Source: a virus
Direction: 5' to 3' (one strand)
Length of the DNA: 53,790 bases
Virus record (IMG/VR): IMGVR_UViG_3300045988_119356
Location: 1 to 53,790 of that record
Both the position numbers and the translations under genes were made by a program. This document shows positions 2,410 to 53,790 of the stretch, in pieces (within the stretch, counting starts at the first letter, position 1; each line of letters starts with the position of its first letter). Below the pieces are notes generated by a model that saw only the letters and a list, made by a program, of their open reading frames with translations, ran no database searches and was not told the DNA's origin.

Positions 2410-2555
2410 GTAAATATTTATTTTTTGCTTCTGGCTCTATTTCATCTTCAGCTTGGATATTGCTGAAATCTGATAGATATACTTATTTTGTTGTTCTTAT
2501 GGTAATAAGTTTAATATTATGGCTTGTCGGTGAATATAAAGAGGTGCGAGAATGA
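2406..2555 (+). CDS. Putative small membrane protein of 49 aa
   Basis: ATGA overlaps at both ends. It has a hydrophobic core. It ends ...KEVRE, like the end of the 1624 gene. Confidence 0.3.
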   Translation: MSKYLFFASGSISSSAWILLKSDRYTYFVVLMVISLILWLVGEYKEVRE

Positions 2556-3310
2556 CCGATAACACTACGTACGCTTACACCTCCATAAACTTATGCGAGG
2601 AAACCGCAAATGATATATTCCTGTATGTCGTTCGTAACCGCTCCGGTGGTATTGAGTTTATGGGGTGCGGAACGATGCCTGAGATTGTCAGTATGCGCGC
2701 CATTAAAAACAATAAATTTTTCAACCCGTCCGCTGTGTACGAGTATTGTATTTTATACAACCAACACTTCAAACGGCGTATAGATGCCCTTAACGCTCTT
2801 GGAACCGCTATACGCGCCATACATGGTAGAACACCGCGTATGAACTTATATTCGCGTGACTACAACAACGACAAACGCATCGTATGTCTGCAAACGGGCG
2901 AGATATTTACCAGTGCCGCAGAGATTTGCCGCAAGTATGAAATTAATCCCGGGCAGTTGAGCGATCATCTCAGAGGCGCTCACGGACGTAAGACCGTTAA
3001 GGGTATGACGTTTCTTTATGAATATAAAGTCCGTAAACAGCAAGACCTTTATAACCTGCTAAAATACTGGACGCCGCAAATGTATAACATAGCACCGGTT
3101 GATTGGGACCCTCATAACACCGGTTTGACTGAGGATATGATAGCTTATTGTTACGGAGAGTATTGCAAACAAGAAATTTGTGTGCATTGGTTAGATAGCA
3201 AACGCAATCGCGACGGGCTTGAAGTTATCACTCCTAACACACAAGTGACACCACCACCCGTCCAACTCCCAGAGGTAGAGAGAGTATCGCTTGACAATTT
3301 AAACAGTTAA
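2552..3310 (+). CDS. Paralog with the homing-endonuclease-type C-terminal DNA-binding domain
   Basis: RIVCLQTGEIFTSAAEICRKYEIN...HLRGAHGRKTVKGMTFLYEY matches the C-terminus of the 1624 and 51098 proteins. Confidence 0.55.
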   Translation: MTDNTTYAYTSINLCEETANDIFLYVVRNRSGGIEFMGCGTMPEIVSMRAIKNNKFFNPSAVYEYCILYNQHFKRRIDALNALGTAIRAIHGRTPRMNLYSRDYNNDKRIVCLQTGEIFTSAAEICRKYEINPGQLSDHLRGAHGRKTVKGMTFLYEYKVRKQQDLYNLLKYWTPQMYNIAPVDWDPHNTGLTEDMIAYCYGEYCKQEICVHWLDSKRNRDGLEVITPNTQVTPPPVQLPEVERVSLDNLNS

Positions 3311-3339: not shown

Positions 3340-3951
3340 ATGAACGCATATCCGACAAGAGCTTACGACCTACTTGATGATAACGAGCGGAAAGCGGTTG
3401 AAGAGTATGTTCAATATGTTGTAGCAGAACAAAAACGTAAAAATCAACGTATCGACTTAGCTCTCAATTTACCTATACCGTCAGAATATATAAAACGTTC
3501 TCGTGGTGCTTTATTGCGACCGGTGCCTCGTGCGGCTTTAGCTGAGCGCATTACGGAGGAAAGTAGCTCTTCGGACATATCACCATCTCGTGTTATAAAA
3601 GAGCTGGCTAAAATTGCTTTTAGCGACGTAACGGACTTTTTATACACAGGGCCGTTTGGTAGTGTCAACATAAAACAACTTAAAGACATACCACCCGACA
3701 AATCCGGAGCCATTAAGTCCGTAGAAACTAAAATCGGACAGGCAAGTACCAGCTCTAAGATAACAATGCACGACAAACTTCCAGCGCTCAAAGCCCTTTC
3801 AGAGATGATGGGGCTTACAGCGCCTGAGAATGGACCCGTGCTTGGTGAGTATGTAAAACAAGAGATACGCAAGGCCGCCAAAGAGCAGATTGAAGCTCCA
3901 GAGGCCGAGTATGTTGAACTTTTAGAGCATGTTGAGAGGGTTGAGAGTTAA
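3340..3951 (+). CDS. Terminase small subunit (putative)
   Basis: 203 aa, immediately upstream of and abutting the large terminase, in the expected position. Confidence 0.55.
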   Translation: MNAYPTRAYDLLDDNERKAVEEYVQYVVAEQKRKNQRIDLALNLPIPSEYIKRSRGALLRPVPRAALAERITEESSSSDISPSRVIKELAKIAFSDVTDFLYTGPFGSVNIKQLKDIPPDKSGAIKSVETKIGQASTSSKITMHDKLPALKALSEMMGLTAPENGPVLGEYVKQEIRKAAKEQIEAPEAEYVELLEHVERVES

Positions 3952-5714
3952 TGGGACAGATGACATTAACAGCTTGGAACGAACGCCAAACTGACAACAC
4001 CATACACCCTTGGCGACCCCATCCACTTGGTGCTGATGAATGGCCGCCAAATTATCCCGCTGTCTATCGTTGGCGGTCTAAAGTCCTCAAACAACTTATA
4101 TCTGACCCTAAAACCCTTAAAGCCGCTAAAGTCTATTATTCAACCCATCCGGCTGAGTTTATTATGGACTGGATGGACACTTATGACCCGCGTAAATCCC
4201 CTACCAACGCTAATCCAGCGCTCAGAGGTGAGAAATGGATGCCGTTTGTTTTTTTTAAGCGGCAAAAAGATGTAATTGACTTTTTTGAGTCGTGTTCGCA
4301 TGACCAAACGAGCGGGTTGGTTGAAAAATGCCGTGACTTCGGTTTAACTTGGCTCGCGTGCGGATATTCTGTCTGGCGCTGGCTGTTTATCAAAAATGAC
4401 GCTATCGGTTGGGGTAGCCGTAAAGAAACGCTTGTCGATAAGCCTGGCGACCCTGATAGTATTTTTGAGAAAATCCGTTTAATGCTTAAACGTCTACCGC
4501 GTATATGGTTACCGGCAGGGTTTAGTTGGGGGCGTAATTCAACCTATATGAAACTCTTAAATCCTGAGAACGGCGCAATCATTGCAGGCGAGGCCGGTGA
4601 CAATATTGGTCGTGGTGGTCGTAAGAGTATAATGCTACTTGACGAAGCTGCGCACTTGGAGCGCCCTGAGAAAGTTGAGGCTGCTTTAGGTGATAACACC
4701 AATGTCCGAATTGATATTTCATCAGTTAATGGCGTCGGTAACGTTTTCCACAGACGCAGAGAGAACGGCGTCATTTGGTCGCCTGACGTAACCAGTTATC
4801 CGTTCGGGTTTGTTCGGGTTTTTGTAGCCGACTGGCGCGACCATCCGCTTAAAACTCAAGAATGGTACGATGCCCGTAAAGCTCGTTACGAACGCGAAGG
4901 TATGGCGCATATTTTCGCACAAGAGGTCGACCGTAACTATGCGGCAGCCGTCAGCAACACTGTGATACCTTATCAGTGGGTTGAAGCGTCAATCGATGCT
5001 CACATTAAGTTGCCGTGGTTTGCCGAGGCTCTTGAGACTCATAAAGACGATTGGTACGCAGGGCTCGATGTGGCTGACGAGGGTAACGACCGTAACGCTC
5101 TCACACTTCGACAGTGGGTTATCTGGCGCGATGTGCAAGAATGGGGTGAACGTGACCCTGGTATCAGCGCTCGCAAGGCTGTTTTAGCTTGCAGAGAGCA
5201 TAAAGGTCATATCTGTTGCCAGTATGACTGCATAGGTGTTGGTTCTGGCGTAAAAACCGAATATAACCGCCTTACAACAGACGAAGGAGTTATAAGTGCA
5301 CATGAGATACCATTTATTCCGTGGAACGCGGGGGCTAGTGTTTTAAATCCTTTTGATAGAATTATCCCTGACGACAATGAAAGCTTGCAAAATAAAGATT
5401 TTTTTGATAACTTAAAAGCACAGGCTTGGTGGTCCATACGGACGAGGTTTTATAAAACGTTTAAAGCGGTAAGCGAAGGTGTAAAATATAATCCCGACGA
5501 ACTTATATCAATAGATAGCCGCATAACGCTTTTAGAGCAGTTGAAGAAGGAACTTATACAGCCGACGGTCGGTCATAGTTCAAGACTTAAATTGCTTATT
5601 GAAAAAAAGCCGGACGGTATGCGTTCACCTAACTTGGCGGATAGCGGGGTTATGGCTTTCTTCCCGGTAACTGACGGCTCGACAACAATTTTAACTGGTT
5701 CTTATGGTTTTTGA
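3951..5714 (+). CDS. Terminase large subunit
   Basis: 587 aa. Walker-A-like VEKCRDFGLTW, Walker B LLDEAAH, and a C-terminal acidic nuclease region. Confidence 0.85.
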   Translation: MGQMTLTAWNERQTDNTIHPWRPHPLGADEWPPNYPAVYRWRSKVLKQLISDPKTLKAAKVYYSTHPAEFIMDWMDTYDPRKSPTNANPALRGEKWMPFVFFKRQKDVIDFFESCSHDQTSGLVEKCRDFGLTWLACGYSVWRWLFIKNDAIGWGSRKETLVDKPGDPDSIFEKIRLMLKRLPRIWLPAGFSWGRNSTYMKLLNPENGAIIAGEAGDNIGRGGRKSIMLLDEAAHLERPEKVEAALGDNTNVRIDISSVNGVGNVFHRRRENGVIWSPDVTSYPFGFVRVFVADWRDHPLKTQEWYDARKARYEREGMAHIFAQEVDRNYAAAVSNTVIPYQWVEASIDAHIKLPWFAEALETHKDDWYAGLDVADEGNDRNALTLRQWVIWRDVQEWGERDPGISARKAVLACREHKGHICCQYDCIGVGSGVKTEYNRLTTDEGVISAHEIPFIPWNAGASVLNPFDRIIPDDNESLQNKDFFDNLKAQAWWSIRTRFYKTFKAVSEGVKYNPDELISIDSRITLLEQLKKELIQPTVGHSSRLKLLIEKKPDGMRSPNLADSGVMAFFPVTDGSTTILTGSYGF

Positions 5715-10416: not shown

Positions 10417-11424
10417 ATGGCTACAACTCTTCAACAATTATATCTTTTACAAATTCCTGAAGTTCAAACGCTTTTTATTAACGCTATGGAAAATATCGTC
10501 GATCGCGCTGTTATCGAGGATATGATTAAAGCTATTGAGAATAATGATGTTGAAGCTCTTTATCAAGCAAGTGGTTTTACTCCGGCTTTGTTAAATCCAA
10601 TAATTAAAAAAATCGAAGATATATATGAAGAAACAGCAAGTATCACTTTGAGTAGTTGGCCTAAACGACTTAACGCGGTTTTTAATATTCGTAACGAAAA
10701 AGTCGAAAAAGATTTGAGAGATTATTCAAGTAATTTTATAAGTAATATTACAAATGAAGCCAAAGAAGTTGTCCGTTTTCAACTAAGCGAAGGTATGGCA
10801 AGAGGTGATAATCCTAGGGAAACAGCTTTGAATATCGTTGGCCGTATTAATCCGACAACAAAGAAAAGGGAGGGTGGAGTTATAGGATTATCATCCAATC
10901 AAGTCAAATGGGTCGCCAATGCTCGAAAATATTTGGAAAATTTAGATGAAAAATATTTCACTTTAGGTTTGAGAGATAAGCGTTTTGATTCAATAGTTAA
11001 GAAAGCTGTTGAGAGCGGTAAAAAGTTGAATAAAGATGAAATTAGTAAACTTATAACCGCTTATGAGAAAAAAGCGTTAAAATATCGTGGGGATGCTATT
11101 GCTAGAACAGAAACAATGCAAGCTATAAATCGCGGTGAGTACGCTTCAATTCAACAAAACATTGACGAAGGTTTAATACGAGAAGACCAAGTCCGTAAAT
11201 GGTGGGATGATACCGGTGATGGGCGCACTCGATTAACTCACGTTGGTTTAGGTAACAAATATAATAAAAAAAATACAATCGGATTTAATGAACCTTTCGT
11301 TTCGGTATCTGGTTCAGAATTGCTTTATCCTGGTGACAAATCTCTTGGTGCAAATCCAAAAGAAACAATTCATTGTCGTTGTAAAGCACAATATAAAATT
11401 GACTTTTTAGCAGGGTATGTATAA
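10417..11424 (+). CDS. Head morphogenesis protein of the Mu F / SPP1 gp7 family
   Basis: C-terminal W..D..DGRTR.TH..L.G......F......PP-like region ending in HCRCKAQY, the family's CRC signature. Confidence 0.5.
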   Translation: MATTLQQLYLLQIPEVQTLFINAMENIVDRAVIEDMIKAIENNDVEALYQASGFTPALLNPIIKKIEDIYEETASITLSSWPKRLNAVFNIRNEKVEKDLRDYSSNFISNITNEAKEVVRFQLSEGMARGDNPRETALNIVGRINPTTKKREGGVIGLSSNQVKWVANARKYLENLDEKYFTLGLRDKRFDSIVKKAVESGKKLNKDEISKLITAYEKKALKYRGDAIARTETMQAINRGEYASIQQNIDEGLIREDQVRKWWDDTGDGRTRLTHVGLGNKYNKKNTIGFNEPFVSVSGSELLYPGDKSLGANPKETIHCRCKAQYKIDFLAGYV

Positions 11425-11861
11425 TGGCCGAAAGTTTTAATGCTGTAATAGATAAAGTTGTCGCTGACACCAAGGAAAAAATGCTTGCTGTCGTTAAAAA
11501 CAGTATTCAAGAGGTTGTCGAAGATGCTCAAACTCCACTTGCTAAAGGTGGTAAAATGCACGTTGATACTGGGTTTCTAAGGTCATCTGGTCAAGCTCAA
11601 TTAAATCAATTGCCAGTAGGTCAAACCGAGGGTCGTGAACGTGCAGAAGGTGAAGTTGGTGTTTTACCAGAATATGCTACACCGGATAAAGCAGATTATA
11701 TATTGCCTACACTTGCAAAAATGAAAGTCGGTGATACTTTTTATTTCGGATGGACTGCTAGATATGCTCAAATTCGTGAAATTTACGACGGGTTTATGGA
11801 ATCTGCGATTATGAAATGGAAACAAATTGTTGACAACCAGATAAGGAGATTGAAAAAGTGA
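11424..11861 (+). CDS. Neck / tail-completion protein (putative)
   Basis: 145 aa, placed between the head and tail modules. Confidence 0.35.
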   Translation: MAESFNAVIDKVVADTKEKMLAVVKNSIQEVVEDAQTPLAKGGKMHVDTGFLRSSGQAQLNQLPVGQTEGRERAEGEVGVLPEYATPDKADYILPTLAKMKVGDTFYFGWTARYAQIREIYDGFMESAIMKWKQIVDNQIRRLKK

Positions 11862-13920: not shown

Positions 13921-16146
13921 ATGGCAACAGATATTGCAAAGATAGGTTTCAGTGTTGAAACTTCTCAATTAGAAAAAGGTGTCGCAACCCTTAACAGTTT
14001 TAGTGCAAGTGCAAAATCTGCAAACTCAAATGCTCAAAGTGTAGGAACAGCGATGAACCAAGCCAGCAAAGTTTTTGCGGCCGCTGTTTCTGCCATGAGC
14101 AAAAGTATATTGTCTTTAGTGTCCGCAACAAAAGGCGCGACTGTCGAACAAATTGCCGCTGCAAAAGAAGCATCTGATTATGCCGATAGAATTTACAGAG
14201 CTGCACAAGCTCAAGATAAGTTAACTACGAGCATACAGAAAGCATCGATGGCATCAAGAACTCAACAAACAGTTTTACAAAAACAGCTTGCAGTACAAGA
14301 AAGAATTAACAGATTAACCGGTGTTAGTGGTTTAGCTGGCGGTTCTGCTTTTGCATCTTTTAACGTTTTCAAAAGAGAGATGGGTAAAAACGAATGGAAC
14401 GAAGCAACCGGCATGTTAACTCGTGATTTAATGCCGAATAGGTTTAATACTGCCAATATTGCCGCACAATTTCAAGATATTGGTGTAACTGCCGCGATGG
14501 GTATGAATCCTATGCTTATCGCGTTGCAACAAGGTACTCAATTAGCTGCTGTTATGAACAGTATGGAAGCCCCGTTAAAGGGTTTAGGTGAAGCATTTAA
14601 ACAGATTGTAAACCCTGTATCATTATTGTCCATAGGTTTGACGGCTTTGGCTGTTGTCGGTTTACAGATGGTTGATTGGACAGGTGTTGCTGAAAGTAGT
14701 TTGAATGGTTTAGCAGATATAATGAATTATGTGGCAGACAACGCCGGTATTGTTACTTCTGCTTTGGCTGCTGTTACTGTTGCTATAACTGCTTTTAATA
14801 AAGCAGCTGTATTTTCAACGGTGACGAGCGGATTAAAAACTATGTTGACAATTTTAACTAGTTTAGCCGGAGTTGTTGCAGCAGTTTTAACAAGCCCGAT
14901 AACGTTAACTATTGCTGCTGTAACTGGTTTAACAACAGTCTTTATTAAATTCGAAGATGAGATTAACAGTTTTTTCGGGTTTGATTTTGTCAGCGTTGTT
15001 AAATCGGCTGTTAACGCAATGATAGGTTCGTTTATCGCCGGTTTTGAAGCCATTTGGGAAGGTGCTAAATGGGTTTGGGATAAAATCCAATCTCTTTGGA
15101 ATGGAGGAGAAGGGCCAAGCGGTAGTTTAATGGATGCCTTAAATAAAGGTGTCGATGATGCTCTTGGTCGTGATTACATTGGTGCCGCTTCTGATGCTGT
15201 CAGCTCTGCCGCTACCGTAGCATCTAATAAATTGAGAGAGTGGTCGTCTGGTTTAAGAGAAATGTCGAAAGAGGCTAAAAAAGCCGCGCAAGCATGGAAA
15301 GACTTAAATACTGAAGCATCTCGTAAAATTGCCGATTTACAACTTGAACAAGGTTTGATTGGTGCTGGTACTTATGAATCAACATATTGGAAAACTCGTC
15401 AAGATTTAATAAATCAAGCAAACGATAATAATATTCAATTAACACCTGATAAGTTGGATACAATAAATCAGTTTGCTGAAAGTACAGCTCGTTTAAGTGA
15501 AAAAAACGAAAAGCTGACCGAAACTTATGAGTTTGCCAAGTCCACAACAAATTCATTTTTCCAAGATTTAAGACAAGGTTTAATGGACGGAGCAAACGCT
15601 TGGGAAACTTTCGGTAGTGCAGCATTGAATGTTTTAGATAGCATCCTGAGCAAAATGATGGATGTCGGTGTTGATTATTTATTTCAAAGCATGCGTGGAG
15701 CAGGAATGTTCGGTGGTGTTAACAATGTTACCGGTACAGCTGCTACGGGTGGAAATGTAACAGTTATGGAAGGTTCTTATGTTGGACCGTTTGCAAAAGG
15801 TGGAGCGTTTACCAATGGTGTTTATAATTCCCCGACATTGTTTAAATTTGCTAAAGGTAATAAATTTGGTGTAATGGGTGAAGCTGGTCCAGAAGCTGTT
15901 ATGCCTTTACGTCGTGGATCAGACGGTTCTTTAGGTGTACAAGCCGATGGAATTGGCGATAATGTTGTCGTAAACGTTTATAATAATTCAAATGCTCAGG
16001 CTAGCGTAAATCAAAAACAGACTTCTCAAGGTACTGAAATTGATGTTACAATTGACCAAATGGTTGCTCGAAAAATAGGTCAACCTGGTACATCATCAAA
16101 CAATGCTTTACGAGCTTTTAATAATCAAAGATTAATTGCAAGGTAG
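13921..16146 (+). CDS. Tape measure protein
   Basis: 741 aa, alpha-helical and Ala/Gly-rich, with internal TM-like stretches, downstream of the G/GT genes. Confidence 0.8.
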   Translation: MATDIAKIGFSVETSQLEKGVATLNSFSASAKSANSNAQSVGTAMNQASKVFAAAVSAMSKSILSLVSATKGATVEQIAAAKEASDYADRIYRAAQAQDKLTTSIQKASMASRTQQTVLQKQLAVQERINRLTGVSGLAGGSAFASFNVFKREMGKNEWNEATGMLTRDLMPNRFNTANIAAQFQDIGVTAAMGMNPMLIALQQGTQLAAVMNSMEAPLKGLGEAFKQIVNPVSLLSIGLTALAVVGLQMVDWTGVAESSLNGLADIMNYVADNAGIVTSALAAVTVAITAFNKAAVFSTVTSGLKTMLTILTSLAGVVAAVLTSPITLTIAAVTGLTTVFIKFEDEINSFFGFDFVSVVKSAVNAMIGSFIAGFEAIWEGAKWVWDKIQSLWNGGEGPSGSLMDALNKGVDDALGRDYIGAASDAVSSAATVASNKLREWSSGLREMSKEAKKAAQAWKDLNTEASRKIADLQLEQGLIGAGTYESTYWKTRQDLINQANDNNIQLTPDKLDTINQFAESTARLSEKNEKLTETYEFAKSTTNSFFQDLRQGLMDGANAWETFGSAALNVLDSILSKMMDVGVDYLFQSMRGAGMFGGVNNVTGTAATGGNVTVMEGSYVGPFAKGGAFTNGVYNSPTLFKFAKGNKFGVMGEAGPEAVMPLRRGSDGSLGVQADGIGDNVVVNVYNNSNAQASVNQKQTSQGTEIDVTIDQMVARKIGQPGTSSNNALRAFNNQRLIAR

Positions 16147-42448: not shown

Positions 42449-42634
42449 ATGGATAAAAAAACTTTAAATCTTACAGAGTTAGCCAAGTACATTGGTGTTG
42501 GCAGAAAAACTCTCTATACCATGATACAGGACGGGCGATTCCCCGTTCAACCAATTAAAGGTTTAGAACCTAAACGTTGGAGTGTTGAAAAAGTTAACGA
42601 ATGGATAGAGAGTAAAGAGAATGATAACAATTAA
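42449..42634 (+). CDS. AlpA/Xis-like HTH DNA-binding protein
   Basis: LTELAKYIGVGRKTLYTMIQDGRFP resembles AlpA-family HTH proteins. Confidence 0.55.
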   Translation: MDKKTLNLTELAKYIGVGRKTLYTMIQDGRFPVQPIKGLEPKRWSVEKVNEWIESKENDNN

Positions 42635-44159
42635 TGAATTATTTTCAGGATTAGGAGCACAGATTGCTGCTTTCAAACGTCTTAATATACCTTGTGAAGT
42701 AGTAGGTATTTCAGAAATTGATAAATATGCTATACAATCTTACGAGGCTATAAACGGTCCTACGCGTAATTACGGCGATATAACACAAATCCCTTATTTG
42801 GATTATGCGGATTTATGGACATACTCTTCGCCCTGTCAGGATTTTTCAACGGCCGGAAAACAAAAAGGTATTTATAACGCCGACGGCAGTTTAACACGTT
42901 CGGGATTGTTAAAACACGTTGAAAGATTGCTTGAAACGTCTGTGATGTTAGGCAATCAACCTAAATATTTACTTATGGAAAACGTTAAAGGTTTAGTAAG
43001 TAAAAAATTCAAACCTGATTTTCTTAAATGGTTAGATAAATTAGAACAGTTGGGATATAATAACTATTGGCAAGTTTTGAACGCTAAGGACTATGGTATC
43101 CCTCAAAATAGAGAACGTGTTTTTGTTGTTAGCATCCGTAAAGATGTAGATACCAAAGGTTATAAATTTCCCTCACCTGTACCGCTTGAGAAACGCTTAA
43201 AAGATATGCTCGAACCTTGGGTGGACGTAAAGTATTATTTGAGTGATGATAAGGTTGAGAAATTTGCTAACGCTTTAAATAAAAAAATAGAAAATCAAGA
43301 TATTAGTTATTGTATTGATGCTAACTATTGGAAAGGAACAACACCACAACAATTTTTAAATAAAAATCGCAGACAATTAGTTAAAGAAGTTAGTAACACC
43401 ATTCGTTGTGGTGGTGGTGGTAGCTTGGACGGTAAGCATACATGGGATGTTGTTGTTGAACCTTTTATAGCTGATGATACACAAGGTTTTGACGGTGTTA
43501 GATATTACGATAATTATTCACTGACATTAAGAAGTGAGCGTTCAGGATTAAAAGTGGTTGAACCCTTACAAATAAAAGAAGCAACCCAAAAAGGATATGC
43601 TGAGGCTTATGAGTATGATAGTGTTTCGCTCGATCAGCCTAATAGCAAGACAAGAAGAGGTAGAGTTGGAAAGCAAATATCTAATACTTTGACTTGTTCT
43701 TGTAATATGGGGGTAGTTGAGCCTAAAGTTATTCAAGTTGGAAATATTGTCAACACCGGCAACTGGGATAACCCTCAGAGAGGGCGAATCTATTCGCCCT
43801 CTGGAATCAGCCCCGCTCTCAATACGGTAGGTGGTGGAGGATTAGAACCTAAGATTTTTGAAGAAGGTGTCGGTCTTAATCCTTTATCGAGAAAATTAGA
43901 ATTTAACGGATTTAAAGAAAACTCTCCAAGTTTAAGAGCAACCGATTATAAATGCCCTCATTGCTACTCGGATGGTTACCGTATTCGCAAACTTACGGCA
44001 AGGGAATGCTGGCGTTTGATGGGGTTTACCGACATTGAATTTGATTGTGCAAAATTGTCTGGTGTATCAAACTCACAGCTTTATCGCCAGGCGGGAAATT
44101 CAATCGTGGTAGATGTTTTAGTCGGTATCTTTAAGGAGTTGTTCGATGACAGATTTTAA
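42621..44159 (+). CDS. DNA (cytosine-5) methyltransferase
   Basis: Motif I LFSGLGA, motif IV SSPCQDFS, motif VI ENVKGL, and C-terminal motifs. Confidence 0.85.
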   Translation: MITINELFSGLGAQIAAFKRLNIPCEVVGISEIDKYAIQSYEAINGPTRNYGDITQIPYLDYADLWTYSSPCQDFSTAGKQKGIYNADGSLTRSGLLKHVERLLETSVMLGNQPKYLLMENVKGLVSKKFKPDFLKWLDKLEQLGYNNYWQVLNAKDYGIPQNRERVFVVSIRKDVDTKGYKFPSPVPLEKRLKDMLEPWVDVKYYLSDDKVEKFANALNKKIENQDISYCIDANYWKGTTPQQFLNKNRRQLVKEVSNTIRCGGGGSLDGKHTWDVVVEPFIADDTQGFDGVRYYDNYSLTLRSERSGLKVVEPLQIKEATQKGYAEAYEYDSVSLDQPNSKTRRGRVGKQISNTLTCSCNMGVVEPKVIQVGNIVNTGNWDNPQRGRIYSPSGISPALNTVGGGGLEPKIFEEGVGLNPLSRKLEFNGFKENSPSLRATDYKCPHCYSDGYRIRKLTARECWRLMGFTDIEFDCAKLSGVSNSQLYRQAGNSIVVDVLVGIFKELFDDRF

Positions 44160-46428: not shown

Positions 46429-47180
46429 GTAATATAGAATTATACTGGGGCGACTGTCTTAAAATCATGGACGGATTAATTGCAGACGGTGTTAAGGTTG
46501 ATGCAATTATTACTGACCCTCCGTATGGTACAACAGCGTGCAAGTGGGACAGCGTGATTCCGTTTGAAGAGATGTGGAAAAGGTTGAAAGCTTTAAGAAA
46601 GGATAATACACCTATCGTTTTATTCGGGAGTGAACCTTTTAGTTCTTATTTGAGAATGTCTAATATAAAAGAATATAAATATGATTGGTATTGGGAAAAA
46701 ACTCAAGCAACCGGTTTTTTTAATGCCAAAAAACAACCTATGAGGTGTATAGAAAACATAAACGTTTTTTATAAAAAACAATCTTTATTTAATTTTATAA
46801 AAACTTTCGGGCATAAGCCGATAAATTCATTTACTAAATATCTGAGAACAGTTAATAAAACAGAAGTTTACGGTAAATGCAATAAAGAAATTTCAGGTGG
46901 TGGAAATACAGATAGATACCCAAGACAACTTTTAACTTTTTCAAGTGATAAACAAAGTAATTATTTACACCCCACCCAAAAGCCTCTTGCTCTTATGGAA
47001 TATCTTGTAAAAACCTACACAAACGAGGGTGATACAGTGCTGGACTTTACAATGGACTCCGGTACAACCGGTGTAGCATGCAAGAATCTCAACCGCAATT
47101 TTATCGGTATAGAGTTAGACCTCAATTACTATATGATAGCACAGGAGCGGATAAATAAAAACCCCTCTCAACGCCAGTGA
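46425..47180 (+). CDS. DNA methyltransferase (N6-adenine or N4-cytosine, DPPY motif)
   Basis: IITDPPYGT (motif IV) and C-terminal SGTTGVA (motif I) show the beta-class motif order. Confidence 0.8.
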   Translation: MSNIELYWGDCLKIMDGLIADGVKVDAIITDPPYGTTACKWDSVIPFEEMWKRLKALRKDNTPIVLFGSEPFSSYLRMSNIKEYKYDWYWEKTQATGFFNAKKQPMRCIENINVFYKKQSLFNFIKTFGHKPINSFTKYLRTVNKTEVYGKCNKEISGGGNTDRYPRQLLTFSSDKQSNYLHPTQKPLALMEYLVKTYTNEGDTVLDFTMDSGTTGVACKNLNRNFIGIELDLNYYMIAQERINKNPSQRQ

Positions 47181-47442
47181 ACATCGAGAGGGGTACAAAC
47201 GTTCGAGGATTCGAAGAACATTTATGTAATTATATTAACACGTGTTAACGATGTTGTCAAGGTTAAAATTGTGCGGTATCGCCATTCATTCGGAAAATGA
47301 ACTGTTACCTGAAACTTGAACCTTTGTAGGCTGGTCGATTATAGCACCCGCACAATGCTTCGAAAGAAGTAGTAACAGGATAGAATTAAGCTGGAATATT
47401 TTATCTCCCTACGCCCTCCAGCTCCGCTCTATCTACGTTATT

Positions 47443-47924: not shown

Positions 47925-48205
47925 TTACTCCTTAAATAAAACTTTAATAACTGTTTGCATTTGCTTAGGTGTTTTGCCGGTGCATATAAGCTCGTGATAT
48001 TCGTCCCAGTTATTAAAATGTATATCTCCGGTTCTAGAAAATATCATCTGATTTATTTCTACATACTCGTCGACATATTCGCCTTCGTTGTGAATGTATA
48101 TATCATCTTTATCGAAAGATTTTTAACCCATTCAACTAACTCTTCCCAGGTCATCTCGGGCTCAAAAGCTAAATTGTCCTCGTAGTCAGGCGCATTGTTA
48201 CTCAT
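47925..48205 (-). pseudogene. Small gene split by a frameshift at a homopolymer (AAAAA), or a sequencing error
   Basis: ATG 48205 reads MSNNAPDYEDNLAFEPEMTWEELVEWVKNLS... and stops after 48 codons. Another frame continues as ...DDIYIHNEGEYVDEYVEINQMIFSRTGDIHFNNWDEYHELICTGK... to about 47925. Confidence 0.3.
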
Positions 48206-48801
48206 TAATCCATCTCCGTTATTAAATCTAAACCATCATCGTCCAGACATTTACCATTAATATCGTACTTTCGAAGTTTTTTATCACCTTCAAATACGAC
48301 ATAATATTCATCCTCATCAGCAGCGAATACGATACCTATTTTATTATCGGCAGTTACATATTTTTTAGAAACTTTTAACTTGACCGGAACAGGCTGTAAA
48401 CAATAATAACCATCTTTATCTGTTAGATCAACGGCACTGTTGATAAATAACGGTATATTGGTAGACGTATAAGTAACAATCAATCCATCGATAAGTTTAA
48501 ATCTTTTACCGGTTGAAAAACTAATAACCGTTTTACCTTTATTCAAGCTATCGATGATAGCAACTTCATCTAATAAAGATACCTTTTCAAACTTACCTTG
48601 CACTGTTTGTGTAATGGTATCCGTTGTTTGAGCGATATACATATCGTAAAAATTTTTCAATTTTGTTGCGGTTTTGGTACGTAATTTTTTATCATTTTTA
48701 TAATTGTATAACGCATTTACAGAAATACCTATTTTGTCAGCTAATTCGTGAATATTTAAACAGTTTTCATCAGCATATTTTATAAAATCATCATATTGCA
48801 T
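48205..48801 (-). CDS. HTH-domain protein (putative regulator)
   Basis: N-terminal NIHELADKIGISVNALYNY looks like an HTH. The start is placed at the second Met with an RBS GAGGAG. The 28-nt hairpin element lies about 30 nt upstream. Confidence 0.45.
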   Translation of the reverse strand: MQYDDFIKYADENCLNIHELADKIGISVNALYNYKNDKKLRTKTATKLKNFYDMYIAQTTDTITQTVQGKFEKVSLLDEVAIIDSLNKGKTVISFSTGKRFKLIDGLIVTYTSTNIPLFINSAVDLTDKDGYYCLQPVPVKLKVSKKYVTADNKIGIVFAADEDEYYVVFEGDKKLRKYDINGKCLDDDGLDLITEMD

Positions 48802-48828
48802 TTTATTACTCCTCAAAACGTTTGTAAC

Positions 48829-48856
48829 ATCGGCAGACTTTGACCGGTCTGCCAGC
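48829..48856. repeat. 28-nt hairpin element, copy 2
   Basis: Identical to 33852-33879. Confidence 0.8.
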
Positions 48857-48865
48857 AATTATTAA

Positions 48866-50378: not shown

Positions 50379-50732
50379 TTATTTTTTCGGGCAGTTTTCA
50401 ATACATTTCTTGTAAAGTTCCGGTTGGTTTTTCAAAACCGAACAATCACAAGATATTTTTCCATTACTTGAGCTTCTACCTATCATATACCCATTAAAAA
50501 ACCAAGGCATTGTGTTAATGGTAGAATAACGTGTAATGGTATCCGATGAAGTTTTTGTTTCTGGTTTAACAGTCGGTTTTGTAGCTGGTTTAACCGTTGG
50601 TCGACTATAAATGCGAATTGTGGACGGACGGCTGAAACTTCTAAAACCTCCAACACGTCCGACAATTCTAGCATCTGCAATATTTGAAAATGCTAATGAT
50701 GAAATTAAACTTAAAATAAATATTTTATTCAC
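50379..50732 (-). CDS. Secreted small protein (signal peptide, Cys-rich C-terminus)
   Basis: MNKIFILSLISSLAFSNIADA looks like a signal peptide. A PTVKPxTKP repeat and four Cys follow. Confidence 0.5.
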   Translation of the reverse strand: MNKIFILSLISSLAFSNIADARIVGRVGGFRSFSRPSTIRIYSRPTVKPATKPTVKPETKTSSDTITRYSTINTMPWFFNGYMIGRSSSNGKISCDCSVLKNQPELYKKCIENCPKK

Positions 50733-51097: not shown

Positions 51098-51460
51098 TTA
51101 AACTTTATTAACATATCTGAACGTCCTTCCAGCTAAAGTTTTCACGTTGCGAATACCTTTTAAATGCTTGCTCATGTTACCTTTACCAACATTAGCCCAT
51201 CGAGCAGCTTGTTCAGCGTTGAGAAATATATCACCTGTTTCAGTACAAACAACAGCTGATGTCGGTAACAGTTTTAAACCCATAAATCCGGCGAAATCAA
51301 TAGCGTGTTTCATAGCGTCCGAAAAATTGTCATGGACGGATAAAATTTTTATATCGCACAAATTATCAGGGGTAATATGTTTTGCTATTTTATCACTGCT
51401 GTTAGCGCCGATTTGTGTAATAGTACCGCATGTAACGGTATATGTGTAATAGTACCGCAT
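51098..51460 (-). CDS. Third paralog of the homing-endonuclease-type DNA-binding domain protein
   Basis: AVVCTETGDIFLNAEQAARWANVGKGNMSKHLKGIRNVKTLAGRTFRYV. The start is placed at the TAATG overlap at 51460 rather than the track's 51562. Confidence 0.5.
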   Translation of the reverse strand: MRYYYTYTVTCGTITQIGANSSDKIAKHITPDNLCDIKILSVHDNFSDAMKHAIDFAGFMGLKLLPTSAVVCTETGDIFLNAEQAARWANVGKGNMSKHLKGIRNVKTLAGRTFRYVNKV

Positions 51461-52041
51461 TAATTTTCTCCCGCTAATTTTACAGTTAAACCAAATATTT
51501 CCGCTTCTCTTATATCTTTGCATGTATGTATAATAGTACCGCGCGCATCTAAAATTTGCCACTCGGCTTTATTAACCGTTTCAGGATATAACTCGTAAGC
51601 CATTATCAGCGCTTGACGGCTTTTATCGGCGTTCCGGAAATATAACGGATCACCGAATAATACCGGAATGTTGATAATCATATCAGGGCCGATAAAATCT
51701 TTCACCAGTTGATAAATTTTAGCGCTGGTATAAAGTCGGTCAAAAATTGCAAAACCGTCCTGTAATAGTACTTTGTCATCAAACCAAAGTCTGTTTGCGT
51801 TCTCGACACTGCGTAATAGTACAGCGCGCCAATCTGGGTATTCTTCAGCACAATTTGTCGGCATCTGTGTAATAGTATCCCAAAACTTATTCATAAAGGG
51901 CGTGCCGCCGCTTTCAATAAGCATGATTTTCCCATCACTAGCCACAAACTCACCGGTGTTCGGGTCTTGATAAACATATTGAAGAGCTCCGCGCGTTGTG
52001 AGCTTGCTGGCGGCTTTATTCAAGAAAGGTGAGTAAAACAT
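51460..52041 (-). CDS. Hypothetical protein
   Basis: 193 aa. It contains several GTAATAGTAC motif copies in different reading frames. Confidence 0.5.
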   Translation of the reverse strand: MFYSPFLNKAASKLTTRGALQYVYQDPNTGEFVASDGKIMLIESGGTPFMNKFWDTITQMPTNCAEEYPDWRAVLLRSVENANRLWFDDKVLLQDGFAIFDRLYTSAKIYQLVKDFIGPDMIINIPVLFGDPLYFRNADKSRQALIMAYELYPETVNKAEWQILDARGTIIHTCKDIREAEIFGLTVKLAGEN

Positions 52042-52196
52042 CTTTTGATCCTCCGATATATTTCTTCTATTTTAACAACAAACCAAGCAATAGGATATAT
52101 TACACCGGCAATTATTAAAATTATCATCGGAAATGCTATCTTTAACCCTATTATAAAAAAAGGTAATAAAGCAACAAATATAAATACTTCTATCAT
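52017..52196 (-). CDS. Small hydrophobic membrane protein of 59 aa
   Basis: MIEVFIFVALLPFFIIGLKIAFPMIILIIAGVIYPIAWFVV..., with an RBS GGAG. It is under 60 aa, so it is not in the track. Confidence 0.35.
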
Positions 52197-52231
52197 TTTA
52201 ATCTCCGCGTGTTATGAGCTTGCTGGCAGTT

Positions 52232-52582
52232 TTATTGAGTAATGGACTGTAAAACATTCCGCACCCCGTCTAAATACTCTTCAATGTCTGCTATTTTTTC
52301 AGTTACAGAATCATAAGTACCACCTTTAACCTCTTCGGCCTTGATTAAAATATCATCAATATCATTCAAACAATCCGAAATATCATTCAAACAATCCGAA
52401 ATATCATTCAAACAATCCGAAATATTATTCAAATTATCATCGATGTCGCTGGTGTCCGGCGTTGCTTTCAACAGTCTTTCGGCCAACTCTCTCAACAATT
52501 CGTCTTTGTCTTGGGACTCAACATAGCTGTTATGATTACCGTTTGCGATGTCCTCAATGTCCGATTTATCTAATGCTAACAT
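52232..52582 (-). CDS. Acidic protein with (ISDCLND)x3.5 heptad repeats
   Basis: 116 aa. A 21-nt DNA tandem repeat lies at about 52358-52440. Confidence 0.5.
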   Translation of the reverse strand: MLALDKSDIEDIANGNHNSYVESQDKDELLRELAERLLKATPDTSDIDDNLNNISDCLNDISDCLNDISDCLNDIDDILIKAEEVKGGTYDSVTEKIADIEEYLDGVRNVLQSITQ

Positions 52583-52921
52583 ATTTCGATTCTCCCTTTT
52601 TTAATGGTATTTTACAAACTTGTTAAACAATGTCAAGATTTATTTGTGTGATGGTACAGGATTAAAACCAAATAAAAGCTTTTTTAATTATTTTAGCGTT
52701 TTTACCCCAATATAATTTCCTCATACCGGATATAGACGCGTTCGGGCCTACACTCGGGCAATTTTCAAGCTCCGGGCACTTATCATCTTTTTTTTAAAAT
52801 AAAAGTCTGTCCCGGTTCAATTTTATTTTTCAAATCTTTAAGCGTGTATAACATTTTTCGAATCCTCTCTATTTATTGTTTATATTATATTTATAACACA
52901 TTTTAAAATTGTTGACAACAA

Positions 52922-53188
52922 TTAATTCCACGGGCCACGAATGATTTTAACTTGTCCGGCCGATGAACTCCCCGGCAAATAATGAATATATTTATCACCT
53001 TGTTTGCGCCATCTGCCGGCCTCTTGTCCTTCAATTAAAACTCGTCCATCTGCGCACAATTCGCCGTTAATAGCCATCGACAAATCAAAAGCGCTTTGTG
53101 CGGTTTCAAGTATCCACTCGCCGGCTGCCTCCTCTTCCCATTGTCTGAGGGTGTCGGCGGTTAATTCTGAACGTTTAAAAACTGGCAT
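52922..53188 (-). CDS. Hypothetical protein
   Basis: 88 aa. Confidence 0.45.
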   Translation of the reverse strand: MPVFKRSELTADTLRQWEEEAAGEWILETAQSAFDLSMAINGELCADGRVLIEGQEAGRWRKQGDKYIHYLPGSSSAGQVKIIRGPWN

Positions 53189-53191
53189 TGT

Positions 53192-53659
53192 TTAGCGCTC
53201 CGCATCCAAATTATAATCAAAAAGTTTGACAAGTTCAGCAATCAAACTGACAACTTCCGGGCTGTTAACGTCGGCTTTTTTAAGTCCGGCGATATAATCC
53301 GGATCGGCTTCGCTGTGTTGTCCGACGTGTCTATAACAGCCGATTCTTTGCGTCCGTTTGTCCTTAACTTCAGGAAAAACGGCTAAAATATCAACTTCCT
53401 CGGTATATTCGTTAGGCTCTTCATAAAAAACAACTTTTGTTTTGAATCTGTCAAGTTTTGAGCACTCGTTTATAATATTTGAGCGGTCTATCAAATCACC
53501 TAAAAAATAAAGATTACCTTGATATTTTTTATAAATTCTTACTTTTTGATTTCCGTTTTTATATTGTTCTAAATCAACAATCATTTTTTGATTAAAACGG
53601 TCTAAAATTTTAATCGTTTCAACGTTAACAATTTTATCTGATGTATATATTTTTTTCAT
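53192..53659 (-). CDS. Hypothetical protein (first gene of the leftward block at the right terminus)
   Basis: 155 aa with an RBS AAGGAG. Upstream, TTGGAT, 17 nt, then TATACT form a promoter-like arrangement. Confidence 0.5.
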   Translation of the reverse strand: MKKIYTSDKIVNVETIKILDRFNQKMIVDLEQYKNGNQKVRIYKKYQGNLYFLGDLIDRSNIINECSKLDRFKTKVVFYEEPNEYTEEVDILAVFPEVKDKRTQRIGCYRHVGQHSEADPDYIAGLKKADVNSPEVVSLIAELVKLFDYNLDAER

Positions 53660-53676
53660 GTCACTGGCTCCTTATA

Positions 53677-53708
53677 TGTGATAGTATAGCATGTAATAGT
53701 ACAGCATC
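53677..53708 (+). repeat. Two tandem copies of the GTRATAGTAYAGCAT motif (GTAATAGTAC family)
   Basis: TGTGATAGTATAGCATG followed by TGTAATAGTACAGCATC. The same family occurs at 51414, 51443, 51527, 51810 and 51866. Confidence 0.7.
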
Positions 53709-53714
53709 CAACAC

Positions 53715-53790
53715 TCCGAACGACGTTAACAGGCGTTGAACGTGTTAAACACTCCGAACGACGTTAACAGGCGTTGAACGTGTTAAACAC
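53715..53790. repeat. Right terminal repeat: two tandem 38-nt units, preceded by a partial unit.
   Basis: Read directly from the sequence. The last 55 nt equal the first 55 nt of the window. Confidence 0.9.

Follow-up and report, generated by a model that had tools for sequence, protein, structure and literature searches.

The distal part of a leftward, predicted early operon in this phage genome carries a short asymmetric DNA motif that is non-randomly distributed, strictly polar, conserved in related phages, selected at the DNA level and placed in relation to promoters and ribosome-binding sites. We read its copies as orientation-dependent binding sites for a phage regulator, acting as operators and as polar roadblocks in the manner of the stoperators of phage L5, and give this reading a probability of roughly 0.5. 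Protein binding to the sites, the identity of the protein and a repressive effect are what we infer from the whole 53,790-nt stretch of DNA (the window) and its relatives.

On the minus strand, which is coding for the leftward genes, the motif consensus reads gc(G/T)GTACTATTACACAa, with the 10-mer core GTACTATTAC (GTAATAGTAC on the plus strand). The window holds eight strong and three to five weak copies between 48.6 and 53.7 kb, against a chance expectation of about one. Exact core matches are found at 51417, 51446, 51762, 51813 and 53693, matches with one mismatch at 51530 and 51869, and one with two mismatches at 53678, in tandem with that at 53693 at a 15-bp period. Core matches with at most one mismatch number 12, compared with 3.2 ± 1.7 in shuffled sequences, and 0 of 100 shuffles reached 12; a scan of the window with a degenerate pattern also gave 12 matches, with 0.4-1 expected. 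A PWM trained on copies from relatives detected 11 sites in the whole 53.7-kb genome, all on the minus (sense) strand between 48.6 and 53.7 kb, and 0 on the antisense strand. Outside that interval, neither the PWM nor the degenerate pattern found sites above chance in the rest of the genome, and in the PWM scan the replication and structural modules are free of the motif. Every window copy is co-oriented with the leftward genes, and over 11 genome segments the degenerate pattern yielded 100 sense and 0 antisense copies. The first-pass annotation had described a family of same-strand motif copies. All the copies it quoted are where it placed them; the copy at 51762 and five weaker ones (52647, 50532, 48610, 51431 and 52600) were not in its list. 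The scan of the whole genome and of relatives that it proposed returned sense-only copies, conserved in ten related metagenomic phage contigs.

Positions T2, A3 and T7 of the PWM are nearly invariant (70-72 of 72 sites), and the variants G1>A, T5>C and T8>C are tolerated. The core is self-complementary at 8 of 10 positions and had been taken for a dimeric DNA-binding site, but the information-rich stretch of about 13-17 nt has asymmetric flanks, 100 of 100 copies share one orientation, and neighbouring copies are variably spaced (14, 15, 17, 21, 23 or 29 bp; irregular overall, 14-56 bp). From this polarity, asymmetry and varying spacing, the binder is probably asymmetric and monomeric. The sites, and two of the genes that carry them, are as follows.

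53692..53702, minus strand: exact motif copy GTACTATTACA, PWM 22.1 bits, upstream of gene 53192-53659
53677..53687, minus strand: copy ATACTATCACA of the TATACT subfamily, in tandem with the 53692..53702 copy at a 15-bp period
52647..52657, minus strand: weaker copy GTACCATCACA, ending 10 nt upstream of the -35 TTGACA (52631-52636) in the predicted promoter of gene 52232-52582
52600..52610, minus strand: degenerate copy ATACCATTAAA, overlapping the -10 TAAAAT (52609-52614) and predicted start region of the same promoter
51460..52041, minus strand: 193-aa gene carrying four motif copies, taken here as host gene for these sites
51868..51878, minus strand: copy ATACTATTACA within the 193-aa gene, codons DTITQ
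51812..51822, minus strand: copy GTACTATTACG within the 193-aa gene, codons AVLLR
51761..51771, minus strand: copy GTACTATTACA within the 193-aa gene, codons KVLLQ
51529..51539, minus strand: copy GTACTATTATA within the 193-aa gene, codons GTIIH
51098..51460, minus strand: gene of a 120-aa protein, a candidate binder and paralog of the proteins at 1624-2070 and 2552-3310
51445..51455, minus strand: copy GTACTATTACA, codons 2-5 (RYYYT) of the 120-aa gene
51431..51441, minus strand: degenerate middle copy ATACCGTTACA, 5' region of the 120-aa gene
51416..51426, minus strand: copy GTACTATTACA in the 120-aa gene, codons GTITQ, in the "YIG" strand of a GIY-YIG-like domain
50532..50542, minus strand: weak copy ATACCATTACA in a 117-aa gene (SDTITRY), PWM 11.8 bits
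48610..48620, minus strand: weak copy ATACCATTACA in the HTH_3 gene 48205-48858 (TDTITQT), PWM 14.4 bits

The copy at 53692..53702 sits in the 17-nt spacer of a promoter-like arrangement, TTGGAT(53706-53711)-N17-TATACT(53683-53688), whose -10 matches at 5/6 positions and whose -35 matches at 3/6, and which the consensus scan did not list. Its neighbour at 53677..53687 forms the -10-like TATACT together with the preceding T and ends 17 nt before the ATG at 53659, with a Shine-Dalgarno sequence, AAGGAG, at 53668-53673. The predicted TTGACA-N17-TAAAAT promoter (52609-52636) is bracketed by its two copies, which occupy registers -56 to -46 and -8 to +3. This bracketed promoter is conserved, the whole unit being duplicated in L014; the position of the upstream site is kept in relatives, where the match is better, and the counterpart of 52600..52610 is ATACTATTACA or ATACTATCACA. 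Within the 193-aa gene, copies lie about 50 bp apart deep inside the coding sequence (nt +163, +219 and +270), and the copy at 51529..51539, 68 nt before the following start codon, is invariant in 9/9 motif-rich relatives. At 51445..51455, ATGCGGTACTATTACACA takes in the start codon of the 120-aa gene, at a TAATG stop/start overlap (51458-51462). The relative L009 has a full copy at the counterpart of 51431..51441, which makes a triple with a 14-15-bp period.

The intragenic copies occupy all three reading frames, and the YYY, VLL and TIT readings given by the first-pass annotation were verified. At codons whose amino acid is invariant, the third position is invariant in 11/13 cases in motifs vs 53/133 outside (Fisher p = 0.0025). 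Amino acids differ where copies are present (KVLLQD vs RVRFQK; AVLLRG vs RVLSDG), and in L019 the otherwise conserved WDTITQMPTNCAEEYPDW is replaced by WDTITQTPHTITRTL, which carries a pair spaced by 21 bp. As judged from these alignments, selection acts on the DNA, as had been proposed, and amino acids were changed to create copies, a clear case of DNA-level selection overriding protein sequence. The motif might instead be functionless, a junction sequence spread with cassettes by recombination or a product of ancestry, codon usage or a recurring (G/D)TIT peptide. Among relatives the region is strongly mosaic, with repeated promoter/leader cassettes; 9 of about 14 distinct intragenic sites share one frame, encoding (G/D)TIT; and related genomes are non-independent samples. 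Nevertheless, the copies use three frames and are also found in non-coding arrays, their synonymous sites are frozen, they arise at the expense of conserved residues, and an 11:0 strand bias with a roughly tenfold or greater excess in one genome goes beyond ancestry alone. We consider this explanation largely refuted and very improbable.

The motif-bearing relatives encode a 193-aa protein 53-93% identical to that of the window, and several carry tandem arrays of GCTGTACTATTACACAA with a 17-bp period (four units in L011, six in L015, two in L012 and one in L013). These arrays stop about 20 bp short of a strong sigma-70 promoter, TTGACA-N17-TATAAA, and have a second tandem-repeat array (19-38-bp units) on one side and a very AT-rich segment on the other. 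They are missing, or present as a single degenerate remnant, in 5/10 motif-rich segments (L009, L014, L016, L018 and L020), and are therefore dispensable. Pairs of copies 21 bp apart also occur in L013, L016 and L020. The motif family is nearly absent from the distant, motif-poor relatives L017 and L007, whose sole retained copy is the one at the start codon of the 120-aa gene (the counterpart of 51445..51455).

Like the iterons of the RK2, P1 and lambda origins, the copies repeat directly, all in one orientation and about 17-19 bp long, both in arrays and singly near a promoter. The motif could be a set of replication-origin iterons, or else serve partition or packaging, with an initiator-type protein bound to it and with the 193/120-aa gene cluster and the arrays beside the AT-rich stretch as the origin. 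Some copies are coding, and the lambda O and SPP1 gene 38 origins likewise have repeats within coding sequence. The position of the arrays between repeat array and AT-rich segment would fit, as would the adjacent 193-aa protein, which in structural comparison weakly resembles beta sliding-clamp domains. We nonetheless regard an origin as improbable. The arrays are lost, and the whole family nearly so, in relatives although the primase-helicase is 92-96% identical across the array-less relatives and L017/L007, and an essential origin would not vary so. Spacing is irregular, unlike that of iterons, and the copies extend over 5 kb; the replication genes are elsewhere (30-46 kb), and the copies neither adjoin them nor are co-conserved with them. 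GC skew of the genome tracks transcription only.

A packaging site is not supported by the arrangement of the contig. Its ends overlap by exactly 55 bp, and the "terminal repeat" near which pac recognition repeats had been suggested is most simply a circular-assembly overlap, with 53790 joined to position 56. TerS/TerL (3340-5714) lie about 3.4 kb from the motif region, with a divergent promoter region between. On a circular assembly, genes 937-551 and 529-200 precede the gene at 53659 and run the same way, so that the latter owes its apparent first place among the leftward genes to the point at which the circle was opened. Between these first two genes and the motif-bearing distal part of the operon lie hairpins and a tandem-repeat array. 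Thus the regulator/operator interpretation and DNA-level conservation survive from the first-pass annotation, and the dimeric palindrome, the pac repeats and the first-gene position do not.

The main rival to the operator and roadblock reading is that the motif is a phage-specific promoter element, either "-10-only" or a factor-dependent middle promoter, from which host RNA polymerase, modified by some phage factor, would start a few nt downstream. The motif is strictly co-oriented with genes, and the invariant T2, A3 and T7 fit TAnnnT. Intergenic copies in the relatives lie right after stop codons, 15-22 nt before start codons and just ahead of ribosome-binding sites; their subfamily is always cgcTATACTATCACA, which gives a good -10 hexamer, TATACT, at that distance without a -35. 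Moreover, intergenic copies take the place of a TTGACA..TATAAA cassette before the shared leader GGAGGATTCGAAAATG. The T4 late (TATAAATA) and MotA middle promoters are comparable in being short, -35-less, co-oriented and near gene starts. They differ in that no gp55-, gp33-, MotA- or AsiA-like genes were found here, where arrays and intragenic clusters occur and the late genes are motif-free. A scan of about 40 ORFs turned up neither an RNA polymerase nor a sigma factor of the phage, many small ORFs being without assignment, and this result speaks for regulation of the host polymerase. For promoters, arrays reaching six copies that abut an already strong sigma-70 promoter would be unusual, as would intragenic clusters spaced by 50 bp. 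The registers at TTGACA-N17-TAAAAT are operator-like, and the motif is absent from the modules where middle and late promoters would be expected. A promoter element is therefore possible but unlikely in our estimation; if correct, it would give this group of phages a new class of promoter lacking a -35.

Alternatively, the motif could act in mRNA, as an element GUACUAUUACA recognized on early transcripts by a translational repressor, an RNase or an antisense RNA. It is always on the transcribed sense strand, and many copies lie just before the Shine-Dalgarno sequence or over the start codon (AUGCGGUACUAUUACACA). However, the arrays lie upstream of the promoter and behind hairpins and would normally be untranscribed, the genome holds no complementary copy (0 antisense PWM matches), the tolerated variants are not wobble-compatible with a single guide RNA, and no conserved secondary structure is evident. 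The only Rfam families in the genome are tRNAs. We consider an RNA element quite improbable, more so than an origin.

Operators and polar roadblocks would account for the sites as follows. Sites of about 13-17 bp would mark the distal leftward early operon, from 53.7 to about 48.2 kb of the window, and each would be bound by a monomer of a phage-encoded regulator, always facing the same way. Where copies flank promoters or overlap them, they would be operators at which initiation is blocked, consistent with the first-pass suggestion of operator sites or early promoter elements and with the association of motif and promoters. Intergenic and intragenic copies would be orientation-dependent roadblocks to elongating RNA polymerase in the style of the L5 stoperators, and tandem arrays before the strong promoter could provide a multi-copy block to read-through or a sink that times shut-off. 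The 51098-51460 protein would be the most likely regulator, repressing its own gene. Some features count against the operator and roadblock reading: the TATACT-forming intergenic subfamily looks like a promoter element, the 17-bp array period is not helically phased, and the sites fall within about 5 kb, unlike the genome-wide spread in L5.

In L5 and other cluster A phages the repressor binds as a monomer to asymmetric sites of 13 bp, which occur at promoters and in short spaces between genes; stoperators are oriented according to the direction of transcription, and repression is lost when a site is reversed (PMC9283540). The gp71 operators and stoperators of L5 thus resemble the present sites in being short and asymmetric, at early (here predicted) promoters and in short intergenic spaces, in following transcription strictly in orientation, in occurring in many copies per genome and in the use of host RNA polymerase (PMC9283540). 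In contrast to the more than 20 sites spread over the L5 genome, 11-13 are found here within one transcription unit of about 5 kb, many are intragenic, and 17-bp-period arrays occur. The phage group is unrelated, and binding and polar blocking are predicted here from sequence. No gp71-type repressor (HTH + Stoperator) was found in the subset of ORFs tested against solved structures and Pfam, the Stoperator domain being hard to detect by sequence, and neither an integrase nor a prophage copy was found; the phage may therefore be virulent, and "immunity" would not be the context.

Asymmetric operators are found in other phages. The phage P1 C1 repressor has dispersed 17-bp operators and the Bacillus phage phi105 repressor has direct-repeat 14-bp operators; both sets are non-palindromic, without two-fold symmetry, and present in several copies, some in early coding sequence. 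P1 and phi105 are temperate and their repressors are identified. We know of no tandem 17-bp arrays or comparable polarity among their operators.

The N-terminal part of the 51098 protein (about 60 aa) has a GIY-YIG-like fold and its C-terminus an I-TevI/I-HmuI-type HTH, in agreement with the first-pass proposal that it binds DNA. The Tyr residues of GIY and YIG, Arg, Glu and Asn are catalytic in GIY-YIG enzymes such as I-TevI. In alignment this set is incomplete in the 51098 protein, with TQIG vs VYIG in a paralog, and the L017 ortholog has GDITRAG at the YIG position. As a monomer, I-TevI occupies an asymmetric operator over its own promoter, which it represses via its DNA-binding domain (PMC2988022). 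Similarly, copies lie over the 5' end of the 51098 gene, whose start codon falls within the densest motif cluster and also carries the sole copy kept in L017 and L007, a point in favour of this candidate. Whereas I-TevI has a single operator and a single homing site, the present motif has 8-13 sites and, in addition, arrays; the 51098 protein is much shorter, lacks the linker, zinc finger and YIG tyrosine, occurs in all relatives rather than sporadically, and matches no GIY-YIG or NUMOD Pfam model. Indeed, none of the three paralogs has a Pfam match (GIY-YIG, NUMOD or other) even at E <= 10. This, the modest fold scores of both domains, and L019, in which motif copies are present and none lies at the start of the 120-aa ortholog, count against the link. 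An autoregulatory role as motif binder would be plausible, and is a weaker part of our reading.

A further candidate, judged by sequence comparison, is the putative HTH_17 protein at 42449-42634, which is 100% identical in 5/6 motif-rich genomes in which it was found and 97% in the sixth (L011). In the motif-poor genomes identity is 76%, with changes in the putative recognition helix.

We also propose, tentatively and as an unlikely specific form of the reading, that the degenerate GIY-YIG/I-TevI-HTH protein, one of three conserved paralogs, was domesticated to regulate transcription as a monomer and in an orientation-dependent way, with operators, intragenic roadblocks and expandable 17-bp arrays as its sites. 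In an even more speculative variant, it would nick the non-template strand at the sites and so load the clamp-like 193-aa protein, in the style of the T4 late enhancer.

To our knowledge, orientation-dependent stoperator silencing has so far been characterized mainly in cluster A mycobacteriophages and close actinobacteriophage relatives. If our reading is correct, the same site logic, in which asymmetric sites of absolute polarity occupy promoters, intergenic gaps and genes, would operate in an unrelated lineage of uncultured gut phages, and this would suggest that polar roadblocks are a recurrent phage solution. Binding by the GIY-YIG/HTH protein would mean that a homing-endonuclease scaffold was turned into a regulator, and its domestication would give the first stoperator-type system outside actinobacteriophages and the first on such a scaffold. 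The compact, highly specific 13-17-bp site and the short list of candidate binders make these proposals directly testable. By PolA, the closest cultured relative of the phage is Rhizobium phage P106B, at 57%.

The window is a phage genome of 53.8 kb (GC 38%) that carries structural and packaging genes (TerS/TerL, portal, P22-type coat), replication-type genes (family A DNA polymerase, gp2.5-like SSB, exonuclease, helicase, RepB-primase/SF3 helicase fusion), several DNA methyltransferases, ThyX and three tRNAs, the last being the only RNA families recovered in an Rfam scan. Its nearest cultured relative, by PolA only (57%), was Rhizobium phage P106B. Positions 1-55 and 53736-53790 are identical, and we read this end overlap of exactly 55 bp as the leftover of a circular assembly, not a physical terminal repeat. 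Position 53790 therefore runs on into position 56, and once the circle is closed the gene at 53659, which a first-pass annotation had taken for the first leftward gene, is preceded by the leftward genes 937-551 and 529-200. A long leftward operon runs from a divergent control region (~940-1620) to the vicinity of a terminator (47161-47194), and the motif family occupies its distal portion. GC skew followed transcription and gave no origin signal.

On the minus strand, which encodes the local genes, the motif core is GTACTATTAC, within a site stretch written GTACTATTACA. All copies quoted in the first-pass annotation were found in the sequence, with the core exact at five places and carrying one mismatch at two others; an exact copy at 51762 had been overlooked. 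Weaker and degenerate copies were also located.

Further motif copies in the window
52647, minus strand: weaker copy
50532, minus strand: weaker copy
48610, minus strand: weaker copy
51431, minus strand: degenerate copy
52600, minus strand: degenerate copy

The family exceeds chance, as 12 matches with at most one mismatch were counted where 3.2 were expected, and none of 100 shuffles reached 12. A weight matrix built on 72 sites from eight genomes (consensus tGC(G/T)GTACTATTACACAA) identified 11 sense-strand sites and none on the opposite strand when the entire genome was scanned. Two subfamilies were distinguished, gcKGTACTATTACA and ccgcTATACTATCACA. The core had been described as a near-palindrome typical of a dimeric site; it is indeed self-complementary at 8 of 10 positions, but directionality comes from the flanks and from the C4/T7 pair, and the dimeric reading was not upheld. 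Six IMG/VR matches to the motif 16-mer were single, unrelated and at chance level, the motif as a text string in the literature returned primers only, and the motif region had no DNA match among 50,697 phage records.

Relatives were sought through the 193-aa protein, whose gene (51460-52041, minus strand) holds four motif copies. It has 73 homologs in public assemblies, many on metagenomic contigs of ~50 kb. Eleven related loci (L-numbers below) were retrieved, with a protein index and contig look-ups as the sole source of relatives; scans of IMG/VR, JGI metagenomes and GTDB genomes for the protein or the array pattern found none. Nine loci with a protein at least 65% identical, and L019 from a 53% lineage, carried 3-13 motif copies per segment, all in the sense orientation. 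In L017 and L007 (~55% identity) one copy is left, at the start codon of the gene that follows the 193-aa gene. The reported strand bias held throughout: a degenerate pattern gave 100 sense and 0 antisense matches across 11 genome segments, counts that are not independent because the genomes share ancestry. Sites come and go between relatives, as at sites A, B and C of the 193-aa gene, the L009 extras at 14118/14169 and the L019 pair, yet their polarity is unbroken.

Intragenic copies are read in three frames, (G/D)TIT, VLL and YYY, as the first-pass annotation had noted. The densest cluster, six copies in 460 bp, extends from the 3' two-thirds of the 193-aa gene through the first 15 codons of the downstream 120-aa gene. 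When these two genes were compared in nine genomes, third positions of amino-acid-invariant codons were themselves invariant at 11 of 13 positions inside motif columns and at 53 of 133 elsewhere (Fisher p = 0.0025). The protein also differs from its relatives where a copy exists, with KVLLQD in place of RVRFQK or RVKLNK at one copy and AVLLRG in place of RVLSDG or KFILDL at a second. In L019, a YPD segment that is nearly invariant elsewhere is replaced, and two copies fit 21 bp apart (WDTITQTPHTITRTL). These comparisons argue that selection acts on the DNA at motif copies. As third positions are frozen and the protein changes at copies, chance, codon usage or a repeated peptide cannot explain the family, and a motif without function is contradicted.

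Copies were found in arrays, at promoters and in intergenic gaps as well. A tandem array of GCTGTACTATTACACAA with a 17-bp period has six units in L015, four in L011, two in L012 and one in L013, and is reduced to a degenerate remnant in L018. Each array is flanked by a second, variable tandem-repeat array (19-38-bp units), the point where assemblies break, and by a strong TTGACA-N17-TATAAA promoter, with the final motif copy stopping ~20 bp short of the -35. The window has lost this promoter cassette at the array position; its two copies there lie in and over TTGGAT-N17-TATACT, 17-32 nt upstream of the ATG at 53659. A conserved predicted promoter of the 116-aa gene (-35 at 52631-52636, -10 at 52609-52614), the best sigma-70 match of the region, is bracketed by one copy ending 10 nt before the -35 and another overlapping the -10/+1, and this 47-bp unit is doubled in L014. 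The intergenic subfamily, (a/t)aCCGC-TATACTAT(C/T)ACA-cacaaatt-GGAGG, stands directly 3' of stop codons, ends 15-22 nt ahead of the next start and is often paired with another copy 21-23 bp upstream.

The strongest rival explanation is that the motif is itself a promoter element. The invariant T2, A3 and T7 fit TAnnnT, and the intergenic subfamily makes a TATACT, with no -35, just ahead of ribosome-binding sites, where it stands in place of the standard promoter cassette ahead of the shared leader. Such a role fits poorly with arrays that adjoin, upstream, an already strong promoter, with copies clustered 50 bp apart deep within a gene, with the different register at the TAAAAT promoter and with the absence of the motif from other modules; no sigma or RNA polymerase gene was found among ~40 ORFs examined. 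A sigma-70 scan showed no enrichment (32 promoter-like sites against 22 +/- 6), and motif copies coincided with scanned sites only at the 52609-52636 promoter. The earlier suggestion of an operator or early promoter element is partly supported. Action at the RNA level would be consistent with the strand bias and the SD-adjacent positions, but arrays upstream of a promoter and the pattern of tolerated variants do not fit it, and complementary sequence is lacking.

An origin, partition or packaging site is unlikely, since relatives with replication proteins 92-96% identical can do without the arrays and much of the family. The proposal of pac repeats near a terminal repeat is not supported, the supposed repeat being most simply an assembly overlap. 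Sites for the host factors LexA (CTGT-N8-ACAG), DnaA (DnaA-box), IHF and Ter, and the CRESS-virus Rep nonanucleotide (NANTATTAC), were also dropped, as conserved positions did not coincide or no hairpin/HUH protein was present.

The repressor of mycobacteriophage L5 and other cluster A phages acts as a monomer on asymmetric 13-bp sites, which lie at the early promoter and in the short gaps between genes; site orientation tracks the direction of transcription strikingly, and repression is lost when a site is reversed (PMC9283540). As the features of the motif match these operator/stoperator sites, we propose, at a probability of about one half, that it represents polar protein-binding sites governing the distal early-left transcription unit. 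Promoter copies would serve as operators, copies inside and between genes as orientation-dependent roadblocks, and arrays as a multi-copy block or titration sink ahead of the strong promoter. A virulent phage could use the same logic for early-gene shut-off, not immunity. Unlike in L5, the system is limited to ~5 kb, many sites are intragenic and tandem arrays occur. No gp71-like repressor was found among the proteins examined, nor any sign of lysogeny: a scan of ~40 ORFs gave no integrase domain, and 185,579 reference genomes contained no prophage copy.

The gene at 51098-51460 truly starts at the ATG of a TAATG stop/start overlap and encodes the 120-aa protein. In this protein the tyrosine of YIG is replaced (TQIG) and no Pfam model matches; it is probably a non-cutting DNA binder. 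I-TevI binds an asymmetric site as a monomer through its DNA-binding domain and in this way represses its own promoter (PMC2988022). Copies over the start codon of the 120-aa gene, including the sole L017/L007 copy, are consistent with autoregulation, and we infer that this protein may bind the motif; the L019 ortholog has no copy at its start, even though motif copies occur in that genome. The sites are best read as stoperator-like polar operators, possibly served by a domesticated homing-endonuclease-type protein. The products of 1624-2070, 2552-3310 and 51098-51460 are paralogs (pairwise E 1e-10 to 2e-22) with a GIY-YIG-like N-terminal domain and an I-TevI-type C-terminal HTH. All three are position-conserved in every relative, the 252-aa one always directly upstream of TerS, a spread unusual for homing endonucleases.

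An alternative candidate binder is a Cox/Xis-like HTH_17 protein (42449-42634), which was detected in six motif-rich genomes, at 100% identity in five and 97% in L011. In motif-poor genomes its identity is 76%, and the putative recognition helix shows K>T and T>A changes. Gene content, compared between motif-rich and motif-poor genomes, gave no clean candidate. The HTH_3 protein (48205-48858) is an unlikely binder because it is not conserved among motif-rich genomes. The 116-aa protein correlates with the motif, yet is not DNA-binding-like, and the 193-aa protein was rejected as an initiator, its model being without an HTH and its beta-clamp similarity weak. That model (pLDDT 79) had only weak Foldseek matches, all to bacterial beta sliding clamps (E 0.007-0.1), and the protein, possibly a small clamp-like one, also gave a weak PHROG 'DNA polymerase' match (E 2e-4). 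The 116-aa protein is very acidic and contains an in-frame repeat, NDISDCL (21 bp x3.6, 52358-52433). Its gene lies directly upstream of the 193-aa gene in all motif-rich relatives and was not detected in L017 or L007; the product could be a DNA mimic or anti-defence protein.

Other repeats were recorded nearby. The early promoter/leader cassette, TTGACA-N17-TATAAA ... GGAGGATTCGAAAATG, recurs at 920-1010, 527-600 and 52853-52920, and at 4-5 copies per locus in relatives, each time ahead of another small early gene, much like the mobile promoter cassettes known from T4-type hyperplastic regions. It also shows that the true start of the gene annotated at 551-937 is ATG 922. The divergent control region contains two palindromic sequences of the CTTGTTAACAAG type (1046-1057, 1441-1452), the promoter of the 116-aa gene has a variant (TTGTTTAACAAG) in its spacer (52615-52630), and L017 and L007 have 5-6 related copies (ACTTATTAACAA); these palindromes are probably a separate, classical dimeric operator family.

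The second tandem array adjoins the motif array on its upstream side, as read in the sense direction (53710-53790 joined to 1-55; L015 8480-8760, L012 8590-8770, L011 1-60). Its unit is 38 bp x2.1 in the window and 19-29 bp in relatives, with GCGTT(T)AAC(ACG) in common, and its length breaks assemblies (N runs). Conserved hairpins and TTAACCGCTTAAAAGATTCGC lie upstream of it, and it is missing or collapsed in L009, L014, L016 and L018.

Relative to L017 (10566), L007 carries a TnpB-only (IS605-family OrfB) element of ~1.2 kb (10566-11815). Its insertion point is precisely the motif copy where the 116-aa gene begins, and both junctions read ACTATTA; the TTAC/TTAT of the motif may be its insertion target. 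L014 and L018 have a resolvase + TnpB element elsewhere. L007, L014 and L015 carry intein/LAGLIDADG insertions in TerL (939-940 aa) and the C5-methyltransferase (840-893 aa), which the window's TerL (587 aa) and methyltransferase (512 aa, 42621-44159) lack. Short repeats of the CTTTACTTTAC type were noted at 78-95, and two more form an inverted pair at 1148-1205. A hairpin followed by a T-run at ~108-135 is terminator-like on the plus strand, antisense to the operon, and a small plus-strand transcript across the repeat arrays is possible.
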